Assembly: GCA_017530505.1 (NCBI GenBank)
Contig: JAFXMI010000022.1
Location: 7,283 to 71,282, forward strand
Length of the DNA stretch: 64,000 nt
Direction of reading: 5' to 3'
Source of the DNA: Clostridia bacterium
GTDB lineage: Bacteria > Bacillota > Clostridia > TANB77 > CAG-508
Positions within the stretch are counted from its first letter, which is position 1. The number at the start of each line of letters is the position of its first letter. This document shows, piece after piece, positions 3,982-18,541 of the stretch. The translations under genes and the position numbers were made by a program. Under the pieces are notes generated by a model. That model was not told where the DNA came from and searched no databases. It saw nothing but the letters and a program-made list of their open reading frames with translations.

Positions 3982-4055
3982 AAGCTATCTTATTATTAGA
4001 TTTTTTCTGTAATTTATCTATCGCCCCAATTGCACAGAAAGGAATTATTTTAAAG

Positions 4056-10144: not shown

Positions 10145-10384
10145 TTAATTTGTATAAAATTTCTTTTGAGAAAGTTTATCTTGAACACTATTTAAAGCTT
10201 CTCCAAATCTTTGGAAATGAACAATTTCTCTTGCTCTTAAAAATCTCAAAACATTTACAACATCTGGATCATCTTTACAAAGATCTATTAGTTTTTCATA
10301 AGTTGCTCTTGCTTTTTGTTCTGCTGCTAAGTCTTCTGTTAAATCTGCAACAGGATCTCCTTTAACTGCAATTGTAGCTGCTGT
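10145..10384 (-). CDS. cotJC: cotJC 3' segment (C-terminal ~79 codons of a manganese-catalase-family spore coat protein), separated from its 5' segment
   Basis: Not in the track because it has no start codon. Minus-strand translation: (T)AATIAVKGDPVADLTEDLAAEQKARATYEKLIDLCKDDPDVVNVLRFLRAREIVHFQRFGEALNSVQDKLSQKKFYTN*. This matches the C-terminal half of CotJC/Mn-catalase. Confidence 0.85.
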   Translation of the reverse strand, partial: TAATIAVKGDPVADLTEDLAAEQKARATYEKLIDLCKDDPDVVNVLRFLRAREIVHFQRFGEALNSVQDKLSQKKFYTN

Positions 10385-10405
10385 TATTTTAAGGATATAT
10401 TTTTA

Positions 10406-12028
10406 TTAACTAGTAATATTTGAAAAAACAAGCTTTAAATTTATATTATGATTACTATCAAATTCAATTTTATCTATCAATTTACACAATAGCTGTTTAT
10501 TTATATTATTTGATTTTAAAAACTCATCAGATAGCTTTTTTATTTGATCATAGCTTATTTTATATCTTGATCTTTCAGTATTGATTCTTTTATCTAAGTC
10601 AATAATTTGCTTTTTACAATTTTCAATCTCATTTTCTTTTTGTTCTTTTATTGATAAAAATGTTTCATTATTAATTATGTTTTCAAGCTTATCATTATAT
10701 ATAGTTTTAATTTGTTCAATTAGTTTATCCATTTTTAAGCTTAATCTTTGTTTATCTTCTTCTAATCTATGACATTCATAATTAATACTCTTTTCAAGAT
10801 TATCCATAACTGCTTTTATATCATTATCATTAAAAATTATTTTTTTACATTCTTTTTCTATTATTGGAATTATAATTTTATATAATTTTTTACTGCTTAT
10901 AGATTTGGTATTGTTACATTTCTTATTTATACCTTTGTTTGCTTCTGAACATATGTAAGAATTGATTTCACATTTTTTGCCACTTTTAGAAAGCTTTTCT
11001 TTATGTTTTAATGTTGAAATACTACCACAGTCTTTGCAATAAATTAAACCTTTAAAAATATCATCATATTTTCTATTTCTATTGTTCTTAAATCTTTCTT
11101 TTAAACTTTGGCATTTATTAAATGTTTCTATGTCAATTATTGGTTCGTGTGTATTTTCAACAATTATTTGATTTTCTTTTTTATTTATAATTCTTTCTTT
11201 TCTCCTAAAGCTTGGTTTTACTGTTTTCGCTCCTACCATTGTTCCAACATATACAGGATTACTTACAATTCTTGTTATTGTAATTTCTCTCCACCCATCA
11301 AGGTTGGATGAAACTCCTTTTATTTTTAAATATTCTCTAGGTGGTATAATATTTCTCTTATTTAAATTTTTTACAATTTCTGTACGAGTATATCCTTTTG
11401 AATACTTTTCAAAAATTTCCTTAATAATAGATGATACATCATTATCAATTATTAACTTATTTTTATTATTGGGACTTTTTTTATAACCATATGGAGCAGT
11501 ATTGCCTTGAAATAATCCTTGCTTTGCTTTTGCAATTTTTACTGCCTTAATCTTTCTTGATGTTTCTTTTGGATATTGTTCACTCATTACAGCTTTAAAA
11601 GGAATAAAATCATCATCTTCTTTGTAATATGTATCAATTGTATCTTCTGTTGCAGTAATAAATCTAACTTTTTTTAATGGAAAATATTCTTGATAATATC
11701 TAAGAACTTCATTTGTTTTACGACCTAGTCTTGTTAAATCTTTTACAACTACCATATTTATCATTTCGTTTTCAATATCACTAATCATTTCTATAAAACC
11801 TGGTCTATTAAAATTTGTTCCTGTATATCCATCATCTGTATAATCTTTGATAATTATAAATCTATTTTGTGGCTCTTTTTTAGAAAGTTCAGCTACATAT
11901 TGTCTTAATATTTTATCTTGATTAGATATACTTTCACTTTCTTTTTTTCCATCATTATCATCTCTTGATAATCTTTTATATAATCCAACATAGAATTGCT
12001 TTTCATATATGTTGTCTAACTTTTGCAA
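10406..12028 (-). CDS. Large serine recombinase (resolvase domain, recombinase domain, zinc ribbon and coiled-coil)
   Basis: N-terminal YVGLYKRLSRDDNDGKKESESISNQ catalytic-serine motif. Cys clusters CKDCGS...C and a long coiled-coil C-terminus. 540 aa, TTG start with RBS AGAGGGAGG. No CGG codons. Confidence 0.9.
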   Translation of the reverse strand: MQKLDNIYEKQFYVGLYKRLSRDDNDGKKESESISNQDKILRQYVAELSKKEPQNRFIIIKDYTDDGYTGTNFNRPGFIEMISDIENEMINMVVVKDLTRLGRKTNEVLRYYQEYFPLKKVRFITATEDTIDTYYKEDDDFIPFKAVMSEQYPKETSRKIKAVKIAKAKQGLFQGNTAPYGYKKSPNNKNKLIIDNDVSSIIKEIFEKYSKGYTRTEIVKNLNKRNIIPPREYLKIKGVSSNLDGWREITITRIVSNPVYVGTMVGAKTVKPSFRRKERIINKKENQIIVENTHEPIIDIETFNKCQSLKERFKNNRNRKYDDIFKGLIYCKDCGSISTLKHKEKLSKSGKKCEINSYICSEANKGINKKCNNTKSISSKKLYKIIIPIIEKECKKIIFNDNDIKAVMDNLEKSINYECHRLEEDKQRLSLKMDKLIEQIKTIYNDKLENIINNETFLSIKEQKENEIENCKKQIIDLDKRINTERSRYKISYDQIKKLSDEFLKSNNINKQLLCKLIDKIEFDSNHNINLKLVFSNITS

Positions 12029-12073
12029 TTTAACCTCCCTCTCTTAAAGTTTAGACAACCATTTATAATTCAC

Positions 12074-12102
12074 ATTATAACAAACAAATCTCGTTTCGTG
12101 AA
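12074..12102 (-). promoter_or_regulatory. Candidate promoter of the recombinase gene
   Basis: Minus strand reads TTCACG, 17 nt, TGtTATAAT (extended -10), about 45 nt upstream of the TTG start. Confidence 0.4.
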
Positions 12103-12125
12103 GACTTTTCTTTTACTTTAAATTG

Positions 12126-12240
12126 TTCAGTTTTTTAGAAACGTAAAGATTTGTTGTGCGAAAAATTGCAAAGCAATTTTTCTGTGCATTTGTCTTATTC
12201 TTATATAATAGTAAATGAATTTTACTATTATATAAGAATG
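12126..12240. repeat. Structured repeat unit 1 (conserved leader, 10-bp hairpin, CTGTGCA, then a ~19-bp AT-rich hairpin)
   Basis: ..acgtaaagatttgttgtgcGAAAAATTGCaaaGCAATTTTTCtgtgca.. then attcttatataatagtaaa/tttactattatataagaat. Confidence 0.7.
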
Positions 12241-12259
12241 TAAAGTTGTAAATGGCGAC

Positions 12260-12373
12260 CTAAATTTTTTCAAGAATTTTTTTAGCACAATATTCTTCAA
12301 ATATTTCAAGCATAATATTTTTTAAATCTTTATCGTTATATTGAATAGTTATATTGTAATTTTCAGTTTTCAA
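12260..12373 (-). CDS. Hypothetical 37-aa protein lying between repeat units 1 and 2
   Basis: TTG start 9 nt after GAAGAGGTG. Translation (M)KTENYNITIQYNDKDLKNIMLEIFEEYCAKKILEKI*. No recognisable family. Confidence 0.3.
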   Translation of the reverse strand: MKTENYNITIQYNDKDLKNIMLEIFEEYCAKKILEKI

Positions 12374-12432
12374 ATATATACACCTCTTCTAACAAATTTC
12401 GCTTTGAGAGAACTTTATAATATTATTAATTA

Positions 12433-12550
12433 TTCAGCTTTATATCTCGAAAAGCGTAAAAATTTGTTGACGCGAAAATTTACTTTTGTAAATTTTCTGT
12501 GCAACTGTTTTAATTAATTATATGAAAGCATTTTCATATAATTAATTAAA
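12433..12550. repeat. Structured repeat unit 2
   Basis: ..agcgtaaaaatttgttgacgcGAAAATTTACttttGTAAATTTTCtgtgca.. then a 20-bp stem ttaattaattatatgaaa/tttcatataattaattaa. Confidence 0.7.
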
Positions 12551-12610
12551 TATTGTTTAATTTAATGTTTATTCATAAAACCCAAAGTGCAAATATTATT
12601 TTTATGCGCG

Positions 12611-12646
12611 CTAAAAAGCAGAAGCCAATTTTCTTGACTTCTGCTA
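12611..12646 (-). terminator. Intrinsic terminator after the RCC1-like gene
   Basis: Minus strand: agcagaag-loop-cttctgct followed by TTTTT. Confidence 0.6.
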
Positions 12647-12774
12647 AAAATATAATATTTGATAGTAATACTATACCACATAAAAATTGCTATTTAAACT
12701 GCAGGATTTTGCAATGTTTTTGCAAAATATTATGTATATTAATTTCAAAAAATCCTAATTTATATACATATTTT

Positions 12775-14119
12775 AATCAGCCATAGTTGACATACTAGGA
12801 TCAATTACAATATTCTTTTCATACGAATTATCAATATTATTATCTATACCGATTTATGGCATGAAACTCTTTTATTGTTTCATCTTCCTTTATTCCTAAT
12901 GCCCCTTTTTCGCTTTTTCCTAATCTATACATTGTATTATTATTATCAACTATTATCGCATACTTCTTTGCAATAGATACTAATTTTACATTTTCTATAT
13001 TTATTTTTTTGCTTGTATAGTAAAATAATCTGTATATGGCTCTGTTTCTGCTAAGTTATCTATTGTAAATCCCATATTATATAATGTTCCATCTTGTTTA
13101 AGTAATAAATTATTTCTATTTTCTATTCCATTTTCAATACTTTTTATATCATTTAAAATAAATGTATTTTTAAAGTATAAATTATTCTTATCATCAATAA
13201 TAAAATATGTGTAGCCTTCATTTGATTTAATATATTCTGTAAATATTATATCTTTTATATTATTTATATATTTATTAAAATCCGTTTTATTTATTTCATT
13301 ACTCTTTTTTGTTTCTATTGAATATACAATTCCATCATTTTTTATTATAAAATCTTCATCTATGTTAGGATAACCTACAATTTTAGAAACATTACTAATT
13401 TCTATTTCAACAGGCTCTCTAGCCCATCCATTAATTTGTTCTGTTATTCCACCACATGAATGTCCAACTACTAGATATTTATCGTTTTCGTTAGTTTTAA
13501 AATAATATCTATCTCCTGTTAAAAATATATCTATAATCCTATAATTATCAATTTTTAATATTTTATTTTCTCCATTATAATATCTTGAATTAGATGCGTA
13601 TCCAAAGTAATATGCTATATTATTATTGCTTAAAGCAACAACTTGAAAATTATTGACATATATTTTTTTAATGTTTTCTACTTCTAATTGAGTTGGAATA
13701 TCAGATAAACCATCTATAGTATTTCTTCCTAATTGTCCATATTCATTACCACCCCAAGAATATATATGTCCATATTTATCTAAGGCGATAACAAAATTAC
13801 TACCTACTCCAATTTGCTCTATATTATTTAATTTTAACTTTGAAAATTTTTCTACTTGCATTCCATATTGATATCCACTTTTACTTGAATAGTGATAATT
13901 TGCACCTGCTACCCAAACACTCCCATCTTCATATAATATAACTGTATATGTATCTCCTGTTTGTAAATCTTTTATATTTTTATAACCATTTATAAATTTT
14001 TCTTCATCAAAAATTTGTTATTTTTCTTGTTCAGTCTCAATATTTATCATATTTTTCATTATAAAAAAAGCACCTATCAATAATATAAATACAAGTATTA
14101 TTATAATACTTTTCTTCAT
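12775..14119 (-). pseudogene. RCC1/beta-propeller-repeat secreted protein, disrupted
   Basis: Signal/TM start at 14119 (RBS AGGAGAGAG). RCC1-like blades such as YSWGGNEYGQLGRN. Lesions: in-frame TAA near 14020, a frame change in an A7 run near 13008-13016, and a CGG +1 site at 12849-12851. Confidence 0.75.
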
Positions 14120-14149
14120 TCTCTCTCCTAATCCTATCCATCATATACT

Positions 14150-14677
14150 TCAATATCTATTAATGAATGTAACACATTTCCTAAAATAGTCTATCAACCG
14201 TTCTGTTTCATAATACCATATAATATTGTTGTCAGTATCAATTACACCAATAAAATAATACTGTGTAATTGTTCCACCTAATTTTAGATTATTATAATAA
14301 TCATATTGATCATAAACTTTATTGTGATAATCATAATTTTTAAAAAATATATACCCTGTAGATACTGGCTCTATGCCTCTACTAAAATAAAATTTGGTAT
14401 TATCCATATCTTCAATTTTTTTCCAGTGTCCATAATTATTTATTTCTTTAATCAATAATTCCTCTTGTTCATCAGAATAATAATATCTATATAATATTGT
14501 TTTTTTACCTGTGAATGCGTACATGTCCTTAATTATTTCTTTTGAATCATATTTGAAAGAACTCCCTAATCCAATTTTTTCTAATTCTAATTCTCTATCA
14601 TCTTGCATCCACCATAATAGAAACATACTTAATAATGTGATACATATAATTCCTAAAAAAACTATTTTTTTTATCAT
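14150..14677 (-). CDS. Hypothetical single-pass membrane protein (Tyr/Asp-rich ectodomain)
   Basis: Probable start at M17 (RBS TAGGAGA). TM segment IVFLGIICITLLSMFLLWW. In-frame CGG at 14198-14200; the +1 frame would end the protein at ...YYETEG*. Confidence 0.5.
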   Translation of the reverse strand: MIKKIVFLGIICITLLSMFLLWWMQDDRELELEKIGLGSSFKYDSKEIIKDMYAFTGKKTILYRYYYSDEQEELLIKEINNYGHWKKIEDMDNTKFYFSRGIEPVSTGYIFFKNYDYHNKVYDQYDYYNNLKLGGTITQYYFIGVIDTDNNIIWYYETERLIDYFRKCVTFINRY

Positions 14678-14690
14678 TAATATTCTCCTA

Positions 14691-15800
14691 TCAAAATTCA
14701 TTGTATTCAAATTCAATATATACATTGTATGGTCTTATTACTCCATATTGCTGTGATACTACGCCACAATTATTTAAAACGCTTCCTAAAAAAGAGTTCT
14801 TATATTCTTTATCTTTTAATCTAGTTTCAGTAAAGTCATATTTGTCCTTTAAAATAATATTTAAATGCCATTTATCTTCTAGCTTTTCACCTGAAATATT
14901 TATAGTTGCATTATGTAATGAATAAAATAAATCTCCATTTTCAAAATTCACTAATAGTTCATCAGGCAAAACCGTATTTTCATTTATTTCTATTTGTAAT
15001 TGATTTTTAGAATATTTATTCAGTAATTCTTTTACTTTGCTTTGTAATAAAACATCTTCTTTTATTTCTTTAATTCTATCTAAATTTAATACATAATAAT
15101 CTTCTTCATTTTTATTATCAGCAATTAATGATTTTTGCAACAATTCTGATGAAAGATAATATTTCTTTATTAATCCACCTGATATTACTACTTCCCAAAC
15201 TACAACTTGCATAGCATAATAAACCTGATAGTAGGCAGGAACTCCTATTTTAGAACTATTAAAAATAAATTTTAATTCTTCAAGTAGATACTTTTCCATT
15301 ATTGCTTCTATCTCTTCATTATTATCAGCTTCTTTCAATTCTTTCTTAAATAAATTTATTTTTTTTGCAAATTTTAATGTTGTCTTATAAAGTCTGTAAG
15401 CTTTATTTAATGTTATAAATGGAGTAACTGTATCTAAACTATTTACTATATCATTATCTAACAGTTTATCCACTGTTTCTTTTATAGATTTAGAAAATGA
15501 AATATTATTAATTTCTTTTTCTATTTGTTTCTTTTCTTTTGATAAATCTCCATATTTAATTTTATTTAAATATTCCAAGGTTAAATATTTTTCAGCCAAA
15601 TCATATTTTTTATTTTGACTTAATCCATATTTATTATATTTTTTTGCAATTTCATTACAAAAATACTTTTCTTTGTCTTTTTCCTTTTTAGGAATTTTAA
15701 TATTTAATAAATTGCATTCTGCATTAAAACAGCCTCTTCCAAAAAGTTTGTATGAGTATGAATATGTTCTATTGCAAAGTTTACATCTTTTCTTTGACAT
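14691..15800 (-). CDS. Hypothetical protein with an N-terminal Cys4 zinc-ribbon-like motif
   Basis: MSKKRCKLCNRTYSYSYKLFGRGCFNAEC... 369 aa from M10 of the track ORF. No family recognised. Confidence 0.55.
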   Translation of the reverse strand: MSKKRCKLCNRTYSYSYKLFGRGCFNAECNLLNIKIPKKEKDKEKYFCNEIAKKYNKYGLSQNKKYDLAEKYLTLEYLNKIKYGDLSKEKKQIEKEINNISFSKSIKETVDKLLDNDIVNSLDTVTPFITLNKAYRLYKTTLKFAKKINLFKKELKEADNNEEIEAIMEKYLLEELKFIFNSSKIGVPAYYQVYYAMQVVVWEVVISGGLIKKYYLSSELLQKSLIADNKNEEDYYVLNLDRIKEIKEDVLLQSKVKELLNKYSKNQLQIEINENTVLPDELLVNFENGDLFYSLHNATINISGEKLEDKWHLNIILKDKYDFTETRLKDKEYKNSFLGSVLNNCGVVSQQYGVIRPYNVYIEFEYNEF

Positions 15801-16099
15801 ACATCTATCACTTCCTTCACATACCATATTATAACATTTTATTACTAAATATAAAACTATTTAAATTATTTTTTTAATTTTGCAAAATAAAAAATTTATA
15901 TACTATTAGTATTATTTAATAATATAATCATAATTCAAGTGGGGCAGGATAAGAAAAGCAGAGGCTTTCCTATAAACATCTAGAAAGTCAAGCTTTCTAA
16001 ACCTCTTGTTAGTCGTTAATTATGCAGATGTTTTACAGATTGCATACACTGCGGTGTATTTTATTTATGAGAATGCTGTTCTTATAGGGATTACAGCTA

Positions 16100-17128
16100 T
16101 TATTCTGTTTTATTTTTATTAATATTTTCTGTTCCTAAAAGCAATTTGTCAAAATCTGAAATAAATTTTTTATCTTGAACTATTTTATATTTTTCGTATT
16201 CATTTTCTGCTTTTTCAATTGCTTGCTTATGAGAAATCTTTCCAGAATTTTGTAATATTTCTTTTTTTCTAAAATTTAATAAATTATCTGTTTCATTTAT
16301 CCAATCTTTCATTGTCATTACTTGATTTTCCTCAGCCATTGATTCTGCATAGTCTAAAAATAAAGTTGTTAAATTATTTAATTTTTTCAGTTCTGTTTCT
16401 GTTAAATAATTTTTTGCGATTGCTACGTCATATTTATATATCATTCCTTCTGGTGCTTCTTTCCAAGTAGTTAATCCCATATTTTCTTTTTCTGAGTTTG
16501 CTCTTTCATAAATTAATTCAGCTGCAGTATGACTTGTTATAGCATAATGTAATTTATTTTGGATGATTTTAAAAAAAGTATTTGCTTCCTCTGATTTTTT
16601 ATCATAGTCAATAGAAGTTACAATAAATAAATCGGTTATTTTTTGATAAGCCATTCTTTCACTTGTACGAATTACTTTAATTCTTTCTAATAATTCATCA
16701 AAATATTGCTGATTTACTTTTCCGCCTTTTAAAAATCTATCATCATCTAGCACAAAACCTTTTATAATATATTCTTTAATTACTTTACTAGCCCATTGTC
16801 TAAATTTTACTGCTTTTTTTGAATTTACTCTATATCCAATAGAAATAATCATATCTAAGTTATAATATTTGGTTTCATATTTTTGATTTCCCATATTCCC
16901 CATATGTTCCATTTTGGAACATGTGCTTTTCTCTTGAAGTTCTTCCTCCAAATATATATTATTAATATGTTTTGTAATTGCTGGTCTTTGTACATCAAAT
17001 AAATTGGCAATGGCTTGTGTATTAAGCCAAACATCTTCATTCTGCAATATTACTTGTATTTTGGTATTTCCATCTTCATCTGTATAAAATATAATATCGT
17101 TTTCATTTCCAATTAATTTATTATCCAT
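16100..17128 (-). CDS. RhuM-family virulence/DNA-binding protein
   Basis: N-terminal IIFYTDEDGNTKIQVILQNEDVWLNTQAIANLFDVQRPAITKHINNIY and the central region are typical of RhuM-family proteins (assignment from memory). Confidence 0.7.
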   Translation of the reverse strand: MDNKLIGNENDIIFYTDEDGNTKIQVILQNEDVWLNTQAIANLFDVQRPAITKHINNIYLEEELQEKSTCSKMEHMGNMGNQKYETKYYNLDMIISIGYRVNSKKAVKFRQWASKVIKEYIIKGFVLDDDRFLKGGKVNQQYFDELLERIKVIRTSERMAYQKITDLFIVTSIDYDKKSEEANTFFKIIQNKLHYAITSHTAAELIYERANSEKENMGLTTWKEAPEGMIYKYDVAIAKNYLTETELKKLNNLTTLFLDYAESMAEENQVMTMKDWINETDNLLNFRKKEILQNSGKISHKQAIEKAENEYEKYKIVQDKKFISDFDKLLLGTENINKNKTE

Positions 17129-17255
17129 ATTATATCTACCTCATTTCTGTTATATATATTATCAAACATTTGTTTATTTGTCAATTGTTTTTTAAATATT
17201 TTAAATTTAACAAAAGGAATATTAACTATTTAAATAGCTAATATTCCTCTAAAAA

Positions 17256-18011
17256 TCATAAATTTGCATATAAGCTTTCTAAAACTTCTTTAGAATATTG
17301 TCTTCCTTGATAATTATGAAACGCATTATTATTTTTATAATTTTTATTTTTATATTTTAATACATTAACATTTTCTACTATATCATATTGAACTTTTTGA
17401 TTATATCTATATAGAACGTTTTTACAAAAGGTATCATCATTTTTGTGTATAGGTTTAATTTTTCTATATAGAATTTCTTTATGATTATTTTTATAAATAT
17501 ATTCATTTGTTGTATAACCTTTTCTTCTTAGATTATTTACTATTCTTGATATTTGATTTTTAGCTACGCCCAATATATCTTTTAAATTTTCGTTATTCAA
17601 AGTACAAGTTTTACGTAGATTACTATAGTATAATGCAATAGAAAGTATAAATTTTTCTTTGTCATTTAAATTATTATCTGATAATACATTTATAGGTATA
17701 AATAACCCTTTAAATATTCCTTTACATTCATTTATAACAACCAATGGAAACAATTGTCTTTCTTGTATATTATTTTTAGGTTTAATATGTATATATCTTT
17801 TATCTTGTAGAGTATTAATTATACTAGAAATTCTTTTTGTTGATCTATTTAGTAAATTTTCCAAATACTTATTTCTTATACAACAATAGCCTTTATTATT
17901 ACTAAAAAATATAATTAATGAATATATTATTTTTTCTTTATCTCTTAATTTTTTATCTGTTAAAATTTGATAGGGTATCCATAATCCATCTATTTTAAAT
18001 TTGTTTTTCAT
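17256..18011 (-). CDS. Hypothetical protein with two tandem winged-HTH-like repeats
   Basis: Internal duplication: DGLWIPYQILTDKKLRDKEKIIYSLIIFFSN...ISSIINTLQDKRYI versus KGLFIPINVLSDNNLNDKEKFILSIALYYSN...ISRIVNNLRRKGYT. Confidence 0.55.
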   Translation of the reverse strand: MKNKFKIDGLWIPYQILTDKKLRDKEKIIYSLIIFFSNNKGYCCIRNKYLENLLNRSTKRISSIINTLQDKRYIHIKPKNNIQERQLFPLVVINECKGIFKGLFIPINVLSDNNLNDKEKFILSIALYYSNLRKTCTLNNENLKDILGVAKNQISRIVNNLRRKGYTTNEYIYKNNHKEILYRKIKPIHKNDDTFCKNVLYRYNQKVQYDIVENVNVLKYKNKNYKNNNAFHNYQGRQYSKEVLESLYANL

Positions 18012-18191
18012 TGTATTTCTCCTTTGTTTTAAATTTAAAATAGGTTTTATGAATAAAATCTTTGATTATTTAATATGGTGAATGGTTGTCTATTCTAAGC
18101 TTTCATTATTCGCCTTAATATTACAGCATCATATGATGTTGTAATGCTAAGGGTACTTTTTTAATATCTCCTTTGTATTACAACATCAGTT

Positions 18192-18541
18192 GCTGCTGTC
18201 CAAGGGAAACCCGCTGCTGCTTGCGGATATACTCCAAGACCATGATCTGTATAATATGGTTCCATACCTGCTTTTTTTATTTCTTCAATTGAAATTCCTT
18301 CAGTTAATTGATTAACAATACTTCCAACCATTTCCAAATGAGCTAATTCTTCAGTTCCAACATCATTTAGTATTGCTTTTGATTTGTTATCTGGCATTCC
18401 AAATCTTTGTGATAAATATCTTAGTGAAGCTCCAAGTTCTCCATCCGGTCCACCATATTGTGAAATAATAACTTTTGCCATCTCTGGATTACGATTCTTT
18501 ATTTTAACAGGATATTGCATTGTTCTATTATAAATCCACAT
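18192..18541 (-). CDS. cotJC: cotJC 5' segment (N-terminal ~116 codons), running into element-derived sequence and a stop at 18161
   Basis: MWIYNRTMQYPVKIKNRNPEMAKVIISQYGGPDGELGASLRYLSQRF...GTEELAHLEM...GFPWTAAT matches the CotJC/Mn-catalase N-terminal half. After the junction the ORF reads DVVIQRRY*. Confidence 0.85.

Follow-up and report, generated by a model that had tools for sequence, protein, structure and literature searches.

A large serine recombinase element divides the spore-coat gene cotJC of an uncultured Clostridia bacterium and may restore it by excision

Introduction

The locus described here raises a simple question: why does a spore-coat gene lie in two pieces almost 8 kb apart, and can the pieces become one gene again? 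The gene is cotJC, the last of the cotJABC operon, and it was found in a stretch of 64,000 nucleotides from a Clostridia bacterium (GenBank assembly GCA_017530505.1, contig JAFXMI010000022.1, positions 7,283 to 71,282), which as a whole is called the window below. An earlier note, made from the sequence alone, proposed that cotJC is split by a skin-like element carrying a large serine recombinase (LSR), and that excision of this element would restore the gene. The analysis presented here examines the anatomy of the element, the sites at which it recombines, the family to which it belongs, and the case for its excision during sporulation.

Elements that excise from mother-cell genes have been described in sigK, spsM, spoVFB, spoVR, gerE and yabG (PMC4191935, PMC5595907, PMC5025042, PMC10747680). 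For cotJC itself there is a single sentence, in Galperin et al. (bioRxiv 10.1101/2022.02.25.481979), which mentions a skin-like element in the gene of Laceyella sacchari. The earlier note had suggested that interruption of cotJC might be new, and in that general form the suggestion has to be given up. It survives for the case in Clostridia: no description of the clostridial recombinase family, its attachment (att) sites, the small gene beside the recombinase, the tandem sites or the multiple occupancy of cotJC was found in the open-access literature.

The divided gene and its intact counterparts

The positions of the features are collected in Table 1. After cotJA and cotJB, the cotJC open reading frame (ORF) starts at 18541, runs as far as ..GFPWTAA(T), and then enters element DNA, where it meets a stop at 18161. 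The remainder is found on the same strand, in an ORF at 10384-10145 that matches positions 130-197 of the Mn_catalase profile (E = 2e-18). The two halves abut exactly on this profile, and when joined they give a coding sequence of 582 nt (193 codons and a stop). The rejoined protein is 92-95% identical, end to end and with no gap at the joint, to the intact 193-197-residue proteins of related organisms, one of which (L001) lies in matching synteny, dxs-DUF2238-cotJA-cotJB-cotJC. The earlier note is thus borne out in its description of a truncated 5' end whose C-terminal part lies far off on the same strand, the two parts now being refined to codons 1-117 and 118-193. Its insert of about 7.8 kb, with an intact 540-residue recombinase near the junction, measures 7,815 bp from crossover to crossover, and the stop codon of the recombinase lies 11 bp from the attR site.

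The closest comparison with an uninterrupted gene, a check that the earlier note had pointed to, is within the species. Among contigs that carry an identical neighbouring cytidine deaminase, cotJC is interrupted in four (L052, L053, L056, L059), complete in L057, and reads through the site in three more (L055, L058, L061). The rejoined window gene differs from that of L057 at 1 of 582 nt; the difference is synonymous and the proteins are 100% identical. Removal of the element therefore restores, in silico, the protein of an intact allele of the same species, as the earlier note had claimed. The downstream flank of L057 differs from that of the window, so that L057 is another strain, and shows an empty site and not an excision product.

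The earlier note had allowed that the split might be an assembly chimera. This is excluded by the presence of identical junctions in other samples and with other assemblers: ENA and Logan assemblies of further samples contain the identical LSR and both junctions, 8.5 kb of sequence showing 2 mismatches, and both junctions are reproduced in at least four independent assemblies made by different assemblers. A second, intact cotJC, which the note had thought worth looking for, was not found in the 64-kb window.

A motif scan, using the mother-cell consensus of PMC3789822, identified a canonical clostridial mother-cell -10 box, CATATTAT, at 19039-19032, 22 nt 5' of the ATG of cotJA, preceded by AC at 17 nt and by ATA. 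By comparison with B. subtilis and with C. difficile, the cotJ operon is probably expressed in the mother cell.

The attachment sites

The half-sites were defined by comparing the junctions of the window with those of relatives, and by half-site scans. The half-site is 19 nt long, CCTTA-N5-ACAGCA-N-CA; six are present in the window, as against 0.88 expected, and four of the six are at the ends of the element. The attP site consists of two such arms around a 2-nt centre (19+2+19 = 40 bp), with ends CCTTA..TAAGG. The attB site has the layout CC(A/T)TT-N10-[NN]-N10-AA(A/T)GG, and is encoded by P-(F/W)-T-A-A/S-x-I/L-A-x-K-G. In both arms of attB, the outer CC(A/T)TT motif is at positions 5-9, compared to 1-5 in attP, and is thus 4 bp nearer to the centre. 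Structural work on serine integrases has described a shift of the attB outer motif by about 5 bp (Rutherford 2013, PMC3783163), and the anatomy of the sites fits this rule for large serine recombinases.

The two junctions share 11 nt of near-identity, ACAGCAGC(A/T)AC, of which the first 8 bp form an identical core; this is the source of a duplicated 'TAAT'. Two relatives with a short core, L002 and L093, pin the crossover to the symmetric centre, and AC is for this reason favoured as the crossover point in the window. The sole base that distinguishes the rejoined gene from L057 (window position 18191) stands directly 5' of this AC. At this place attL has A, and T is found both in attR and in the empty sites of L055, L057, L058 and L061; the encoded CotJC protein is the same with either base. 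Excision is predicted to leave an attB reading ..GGACAGCAGC[A/T]ACAATTGCAG.. (as a 60-mer, CCCTTGGACAGCAGC[A/T]ACAATTGCAGTTAAAGG) and an attP reading ..AACAGCAGC[T/A]ACTGATGTTG.. (as a 60-mer, CCTTAAAATAACAGCAGC[T/A]ACTGATGTTGTAATACAAAGG).

The crossover dinucleotide is the first two bases of codon 118 of the host cotJC. In most hosts this codon is Tyr (TAT/TAC) and the centre is TA; the window has Thr (ACA) and centre AC, L009/L062/L063 have Val (GTC) and centre GT, and L093-96 and L065 have Cys (TGT) and centre TG.

Many of the elements contain two complete attP-type sites, 16-17 nt apart, directly 3' of the LSR gene and with different centres. In one group the distal TA site has been used and the proximal site is intact beside the LSR, with a proximal centre of GT (L002, L010/L087, L015, L017, L024, L029) or GC (L011, L064). 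The window and L009 have used the proximal site, and the window keeps its complete TA site 17 nt inside attL. Both tandem positions are therefore used in nature, the proximal one in the window and L009, and the reverse in seven other lineages. We read the tandem sites as alternatives that would widen the host range to different cotJC alleles. The unused site, which has an RNA fold z of -4.6, could also be a recombinase-binding operator or a terminator hairpin.

The elements do not all have the same polarity of attP with respect to the LSR gene: read in the direction of the LSR, the centre is TG in L093 and CA in L065. These data are compatible with the rule that the central dinucleotide sets polarity, and are no test of it.

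The recombinase and the 37-residue gene

The LSR contains the Pfam domains Resolvase (PF00239, E = 5e-19), Recombinase (PF07508, E = 9e-21) and Zn_ribbon_recom (PF13408, E = 5e-7). The closest solved catalytic domain is that of TnpX (PDB 2mhc, E = 5e-21), whose motif LYERLSRDD aligns with LYKRLSRDD of the LSR. Within the family, the ratio of nonsynonymous to synonymous divergence (dN/dS) is 0.05-0.19, and the recombinase is thus under purifying selection. No close relative was found in phage and plasmid collections, where identity is at most 30% (the value for the best phage match). The promoter of the LSR is of sigma-A type, and in relatives it is conserved as TTTACA-17-TATAAT.

Directly upstream of the LSR, at all loci, is a small gene of 36-37 residues, which is the only gene besides the LSR that is common to all elements; a minimal element of 3.1 kb (L007) retains it. 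It has a good ribosome-binding site and a coding signature, with a ratio of nonsynonymous to synonymous polymorphism (pN/pS) of 0.29 in frame versus 0.94 and 0.91 out of frame, and with the third positions most variable. Homologues of 54 and 45 residues are found upstream of LSRs with 48% and 39% identity, the latter LSR sitting at a different target. The 37-residue protein has no match in Pfam, PHROG or PADLOC. It is a candidate for the recombination directionality factor (RDF) of the LSR, because small gene and LSR are arranged as in the rdf-int-attP 'recombination unit' known from SPbeta, gin and skin(Cd) (PMC6957869, PMC5595907, PMC5025042).

Upstream of the small gene, a conserved block follows a terminator hairpin, and is possibly a promoter or operator. 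It reads G(C/A)ATAAA-N13-AATA(C/T)T.., a weak sigma-E-like match whose -10 box is without its conserved first C. The motif CATATAAT occurs at 12524-12517, 144 nt upstream of the small gene; its count of 43 in 64 kb is the chance rate.

Two further features of this region were noted. A module of some 110 nt, structured and with an inverted repeat inside it, GCACAGAAAA..TTTTCGC..CAACAAAT.TTTACG.., is present twice on the (-) strand, at about 12250-12139 and 12500-12390, one copy being upstream of the LSR and one upstream of the small gene. L013, L019 and L026 also have it upstream of the small gene; it represents either a regulatory element or a mobile repeat of miniature size. A near-perfect palindrome of 37 nt, AATTAATTATATGAAAATGCTTTCATATAATTAATT, lies at 12542-12510 between the conserved block and the small gene, and contains CATATAAT on both strands; it also occurs in L020 and L021.

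Table 1 Features of the cotJC locus, in window positions
Feature	Position	Strand	Basis or remark
cotJA, 71 residues	18794..19009	(-)	Pfam CotJA
cotJB, 87 residues	18544..18807	(-)	Pfam CotJB, E = 3e-25; also gene calls in L048
cotJC 5' part, codons 1-117 and crossover dinucleotide	18189..18541	(-)	Pfam Mn_catalase positions 1-130, E = 1e-29; tblastn
attL ..GGACAGCAGCA-AC-TGATGTTGTAATACAAAGG	18209-18170	(-)	B arm 18209-18191, centre AC 18190-18189, P' arm 18188-18170
Second complete, unused attP-type site CCTTAGCATTACAACATCA-TA-TGATGCTGTAATATTAAGG	18113..18152		17 nt inside attL; half-site scans
Replication-initiator-like (Rep-like) protein, two HTH_36 domains	17256..18011	(-)	Pfam HTH_36; PHROG replication initiation / DnaD-like
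RhuM-family protein, candidate defence gene (PADLOC PDC-S05)	16100..17128	(-)	Pfam E = 2e-101; PADLOC E = 8e-136
Two overlapping cargo ORFs, 378 and 191 residues	14150..15827	(-)	No Pfam, PHROG or PADLOC match
RCC1-repeat protein (cargo)	13001..13861	(-)	Pfam RCC1 / WD40_RLD
Terminator hairpin, then conserved block ..TAATATTTGCAC..TTTATGAATAAAC..	12561..12645	(-)	Upstream of small gene; by-eye alignment, 23 loci
Conserved 37-residue gene, TTG start; MKTENYNITIQYNDKDLKNIMLEIFEEYCAKKILEKI	12260..12373	(-)	Candidate RDF
Sigma-A-type LSR promoter TTCACG-17-TGTTATAAT	12074..12102	(-)	Followed by conserved 5' leader and TTG start
LSR, 540 residues, catalytic Ser21 in RLSRDD	10406..12028	(-)	Pfam; TnpX alignment
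attR CCTTAAAATAACAGCAGCT-AC-AATTGCAGTTAAAGG	10394-10355	(-)	P arm 10394-10376, centre AC 10375-10374, B' arm 10373-10355
cotJC 3' part, codons 118-193 and stop	10145..10375	(-)	Pfam Mn_catalase positions 130-197; translation

Distribution of the family

Relatives of the LSR form about 95 clusters at 74-90% identity in a protein collection. Among species-representative genomes, 24 uncultured Clostridium/Clostridia from human, mouse and rabbit gut carry an LSR that is 74-92% identical, and a scan of metagenome contigs added only four close loci. The integrated copies were located in these 24 genomes by tblastn and half-site scans. All 21 of the 21 informative copies are at the same codon of cotJC, the remaining three genomes being one with an unintegrated copy (L016), one circular contig (L020) and one contig of insufficient length. 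The same cotJC site is used by an LSR (L097) whose identity is just 48%.

The smallest element measures 3.1 kb and the largest exceed 10 kb, and their cargo varies: MNT/HepT toxin-antitoxin, NUDIX, DUF2207, methyltransferase, RhuM and Fic genes are all found. They occur in both orientations relative to cotJC, which rules out read-through from the cotJ promoter as a general trigger.

The circular contig L020 is a relative's element, 5,580 bp long with a 99-nt terminal overlap, and its attP is intact. Copies in the form of a free circle are thus found in nature. In the unintegrated copy on the 22.9-kb contig L016 (11635-11720), an intact TA attP comes after a half-decayed proximal site, and is followed by a Rep-like gene.

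Strains L093, L094 and L095 have the same LSR protein, but L093 on the one hand and L094 and L095 on the other differ by a further element, with a 532-residue LSR, which lies directly upstream of the 5' fragment of cotJC. Gain or loss is thus still going on inside a single species. In L098 (2538-4506) and L099, a cassette consisting of a small gene (the 45-residue homologue) and an LSR of 39% identity is inserted elsewhere; it adjoins a CxxCxxCC-domain gene, close to yabP-yqfD.

Other recombinase families in cotJC

cotJC is also the target of at least three other LSR families, which insert at other positions and are 23-40% identical to each other and to the window LSR. Family C inserts near residue 61/62 (..ILND(I/V) / GTEELAHLE.., where the slash marks the break), in L028 (685-5941) and L007 (5477-8559); the two LSRs, of 519 and 463 residues respectively, are mutually 59% identical. 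Fragments of cotJC that start at residue 62 are present also in L018, L021 and L026. Family B inserts near residue 100 in L004, L010 and L019, and the same break is seen in L017. A further family is found near residue 135 in L015, and L087 has a pair of LSRs at the same break.

The most divided gene is that of L087 (1940-19238; also L088-L092). Here cotJC consists of four perfectly abutting pieces, covering approximately residues 63-101, 100-118, 118-135 and 136-193, and between them lie three elements, each provided with one or more serine recombinases of its own. The first piece starts directly behind a further LSR gene, and the number of elements in this one gene of 193 codons would thus be four, with five pieces of cotJC. 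A wider picture can be drawn from this, in which cotJC would be a contested landing pad for at least four unrelated LSR families, each with its own codon, the family of the window element would keep up with variation of the host sequence through its crossover dinucleotide and its tandem attP sites, the multiple attP sites being a natural host-range device, and the gene would be reassembled developmentally in several steps. We put this picture forward tentatively, as falling a little short of probable.

Two side observations concern other loci. L012 has one extra C at 3984-3986, exactly at the residue-61/62 site (..GATGTA-C-GGTACTGAAGAA..), and its frame is shifted in consequence; the base may come from faulty sequencing, or it may be a genuine lesion at an att site. 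The 3' fragments of L013 and L022 break off early, at about 2689 (after about residue 177) and at about 2502 (about residue 136) respectively. These breaks could mark additional insertion sites and need not be decay.

Cargo and class of the element

The Rep-like gene adjoins the attP region, and its product has no close relative in plasmid or phage collections. The element contains no virion genes, its PHROG matches being limited to the integrase, the replication initiator and RCC1, and a Pfam scan found no Mob gene in it. The earlier note had called it a skin-like recombinase element in a sporulation gene. A site-specific LSR element at a defined att site is indeed present; the term skin-like, in its sense of prophage-like, does not suit an element without phage structural genes. 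Judged by its gene content, the element is non-phage, and nearer to the gin element of gerE than to prophage-like skin. It is a member of a horizontally mobile family and not a domesticated host element.

It is worth adding that just downstream of cotJC, at 9646-8380 on the (-) strand, an ORF of 44 residues with a prepilin-like hydrophobic leader (..GITLIALVITVIVLLILA..) overlaps the start, in another frame, of an ORF of 381 residues. The pair may be a frameshifted pilin-like gene.

Is cotJC rebuilt in the mother cell?

Starting from the observed anatomy, site specificity and exact restorability of the locus, the free circles of a relative and the mobility of the family, we propose the following. 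A non-phage integrative element of 7,815 bp would have been inserted by LSR-mediated site-specific recombination at codon 117/118 of cotJC. Its core would be a cassette of the 37-residue gene, the LSR and the attP region, and the rest (Rep-like, RhuM and others) would be exchangeable cargo. The LSR is predicted to bind the 40-bp pseudo-palindrome CCTTA-N14-[2-nt centre]-N14-TAAGG and to exchange strands at the first two bases of codon 118 (AC). While the element is integrated, cotJC would be silent and in two parts. If the LSR then recombined attL and attR, with the 37-residue protein as the presumed directionality factor, the circle would be released and cotJC rebuilt. By analogy with skin(Cd), SPbeta and gin, this would take place in the sporulating mother cell, so that the spore keeps the element and the mother cell makes CotJC. 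The same recombination system would allow the element to spread between species.

The state of the fragments is consistent with continued use of the gene. The 3' fragments have no promoter, yet in 16 of 17 loci they remain open as far as the natural stop; their pairwise dN/dS is 0.01-0.3 at a synonymous divergence (dS) of 0.3-1.2. The -10 box of cotJA and the purifying selection on the LSR also speak for such use. No internal stop is present in any cotJC fragment examined, including the middle pieces of 18-40 codons in L087.

Several observations weigh against this proposal. The divergence of the LSR is uncorrelated with that of cotJC (Mantel rho -0.11, p = 0.81), which rules out co-divergence of element and host as a sign of long residence. 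Between close hosts, dS of the LSR is 0.21-0.33 versus 0.33-0.86 for cotJC, so that the LSR is younger than the divergence of the hosts, and strains of one species differ in the presence of the element. It follows from these three results that the family is actively mobile, and hence that intact cotJC fragments alone cannot prove developmental excision, since they could reflect recent insertion. The motif scan found no convincing sigma-E or sigma-K promoter on the LSR or upstream of the small gene. The intact alleles found in the same species come from other strains, and the exact rejoined protein is absent from a collection of 15 billion proteins. The base difference at 18191 needs either a polymorphic synonymous position (GCA/GCT) or a crossover within the 8-bp core; it could also be an attB variant that affects integration. 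TnpX, which the N-terminal domain of the LSR resembles most, is not known to need an RDF or to be under developmental control in either excision or integration. Furthermore, cotJ mutants of B. subtilis still sporulate, and cotJC may therefore be a tolerated landing site.

Taken as a whole, an LSR element in cotJC that is excised in the mother cell to rebuild the gene is in our view the probable explanation, though not by a wide measure of certainty. Its parts are not equally firm. Precise LSR-mediated excision is nearly certain; that it is restricted to the mother cell is suggested by the related systems, and here we are about evenly divided.

The alternative that survives best is a purely selfish element for which cotJC, being conserved, silent in growth and dispensable, is a safe harbour. 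Excision, independent of an RDF as in Tn4451, would then serve only transfer or replication, outside any sporulation programme, and the spores would be without CotJC. Horizontal mobility, the Rep-like gene beside attP, the free circle assembled from a metagenome and the TnpX-like catalytic domain all suit such an element, as do a sigma-A-type LSR promoter with no significant sporulation promoter found, and the presence or absence of the element in strains of one species. The presence of up to four elements in the cotJC of one genome is likewise what a dispensable landing pad would show. It is harder to reconcile with cotJC fragments that are stop-free and perfectly abutting in every case examined, and with 3' fragments of which all except one are intact, with dN/dS down to 0.01. 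Moreover, the characterised precedents of the same anatomy all excise in the mother cell (PMC4191935, PMC5595907, PMC5025042), and the conserved small gene beside the LSR resembles an RDF-integrase unit. We regard a purely selfish element as a genuine possibility, but on this evidence a rather doubtful one.

It could also be supposed that cotJC is a dead pseudogene and the element an immobile fossil, and the annotation of the truncated N-terminal ORF, of 126 residues, as a stand-alone 'manganese catalase family protein' might be taken in that sense. Against this, purifying selection acts on the LSR, the small gene and both att sites, all of them still intact; the one synonymous nucleotide noted above is all that separates the halves from the uninterrupted allele of the species; and the family is mobile. 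This explanation is very improbable. Finally, although the window comes from a metagenome-assembled genome (NCBI 'Clostridia bacterium', proteins MBR3697133-44), an artefact of assembly or binning is hardly conceivable when attL, attR and the gene order are identical in the ENA and Logan assemblies of several samples by different assemblers, and the same architecture is present in more than 20 other species.

Significance

With these results, a structural spore-coat gene, and an LSR family found in more than 20 uncultured gut Clostridia, join the short list of interrupted sporulation genes. If excision is developmental, the spore-coat composition of abundant gut anaerobes depends on mobile DNA, and some species would need up to four independent excisions in one gene. 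The family provides a natural series of related serine integrases, with 40-bp sites, four crossover dinucleotides, tandem attP sites and a 37-residue RDF candidate. Integrase engineering can profit directly from such a series, as can work on the way in which integrases keep up with drift of their target site.

Comparison with known systems

The window element probably belongs to the known class of sporulation-gene intervening elements, and its developmental behaviour would follow by analogy with that class. It lies within the coding sequence of what is probably a mother-cell gene, has an LSR at one end and a short common core, and its removal restores the ORF in silico. It has neither the phage-related gene content of the skin type, nor the relaxed target and mobilisation module of the Tn4451 type, all 21 informative insertions being at a single codon and a Mob gene being absent from the window element.

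The nearest parallel is gin, in gerE of Bacillus cereus ATCC10987, with its LSR GirC and its RDF GirX (PMC5595907). Both are small non-phage elements in a short mother-cell gene, with an LSR and a small accessory protein, an imperfect inverted-repeat att site and a short common core, and relatives of gin, like those of the cotJC element, are composites with further serine recombinases. They differ in the target gene and in the recombinase lineage; and excision of gin in sporulation has been shown experimentally, whereas the cotJC element is known from its sequence. Unlike the cotJC element, gin has no reported tandem alternative attP sites or Rep-like gene.

The skin(Cd) element in sigK of Clostridioides difficile, with LSR CD1231 and RDF CD1234 (PMC5025042), shares with the cotJC element a clostridial host, a sigma-A-type promoter for the LSR, and a small unrelated protein that is the actual RDF in skin(Cd) and a candidate in the cotJC element. 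Its excision also restores a mother-cell gene. In contrast, skin(Cd) is prophage-like, is 14.6 kb long, and interrupts a regulator that is essential for sporulation, whereas cotJC encodes a structural coat protein. CD1231 is constitutive, and mother-cell specificity comes from the RDF alone (PMC5025042); the gene for this RDF has a mapped sigma-E/SpoIIID promoter, and none was found for the small gene of the cotJC element.

SPbeta in spsM of Bacillus subtilis, with SprA and SprB (PMC4191935, PMC6957869), has the same attL-rdf-int-attR unit and likewise occupies a late mother-cell gene for the spore surface. It too is still horizontally mobile, and in both cases the att core encodes a short peptide overlap. 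It differs in being a functional phage of 134 kb, compared to 7.8 kb and no virion genes for the cotJC element.

The element of Laceyella sacchari has the same target, cotJC, in a host of another class (Bacilli, Thermoactinomycetaceae); the sentence devoted to it gives neither a site, nor a recombinase family, nor a distribution. Tn4451 and Tn4453, with TnpX, provide the closest solved catalytic domain, and are clostridial elements with a circular intermediate. The TnpX elements have many insertion sites, with a GA core, possess mob/oriT and are not known to require an RDF, whereas the cotJC family keeps strictly to one codon.

A more distant parallel is found in the heterocysts of Anabaena, where nifD, fdxN and hupL, genes of a terminal cell, are interrupted by elements with their own recombinases, several per genome. 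Those are elements of cyanobacteria, partly with tyrosine recombinases, and are distributed over different genes, whereas in the gut Clostridia up to four are found in one gene of 193 codons.

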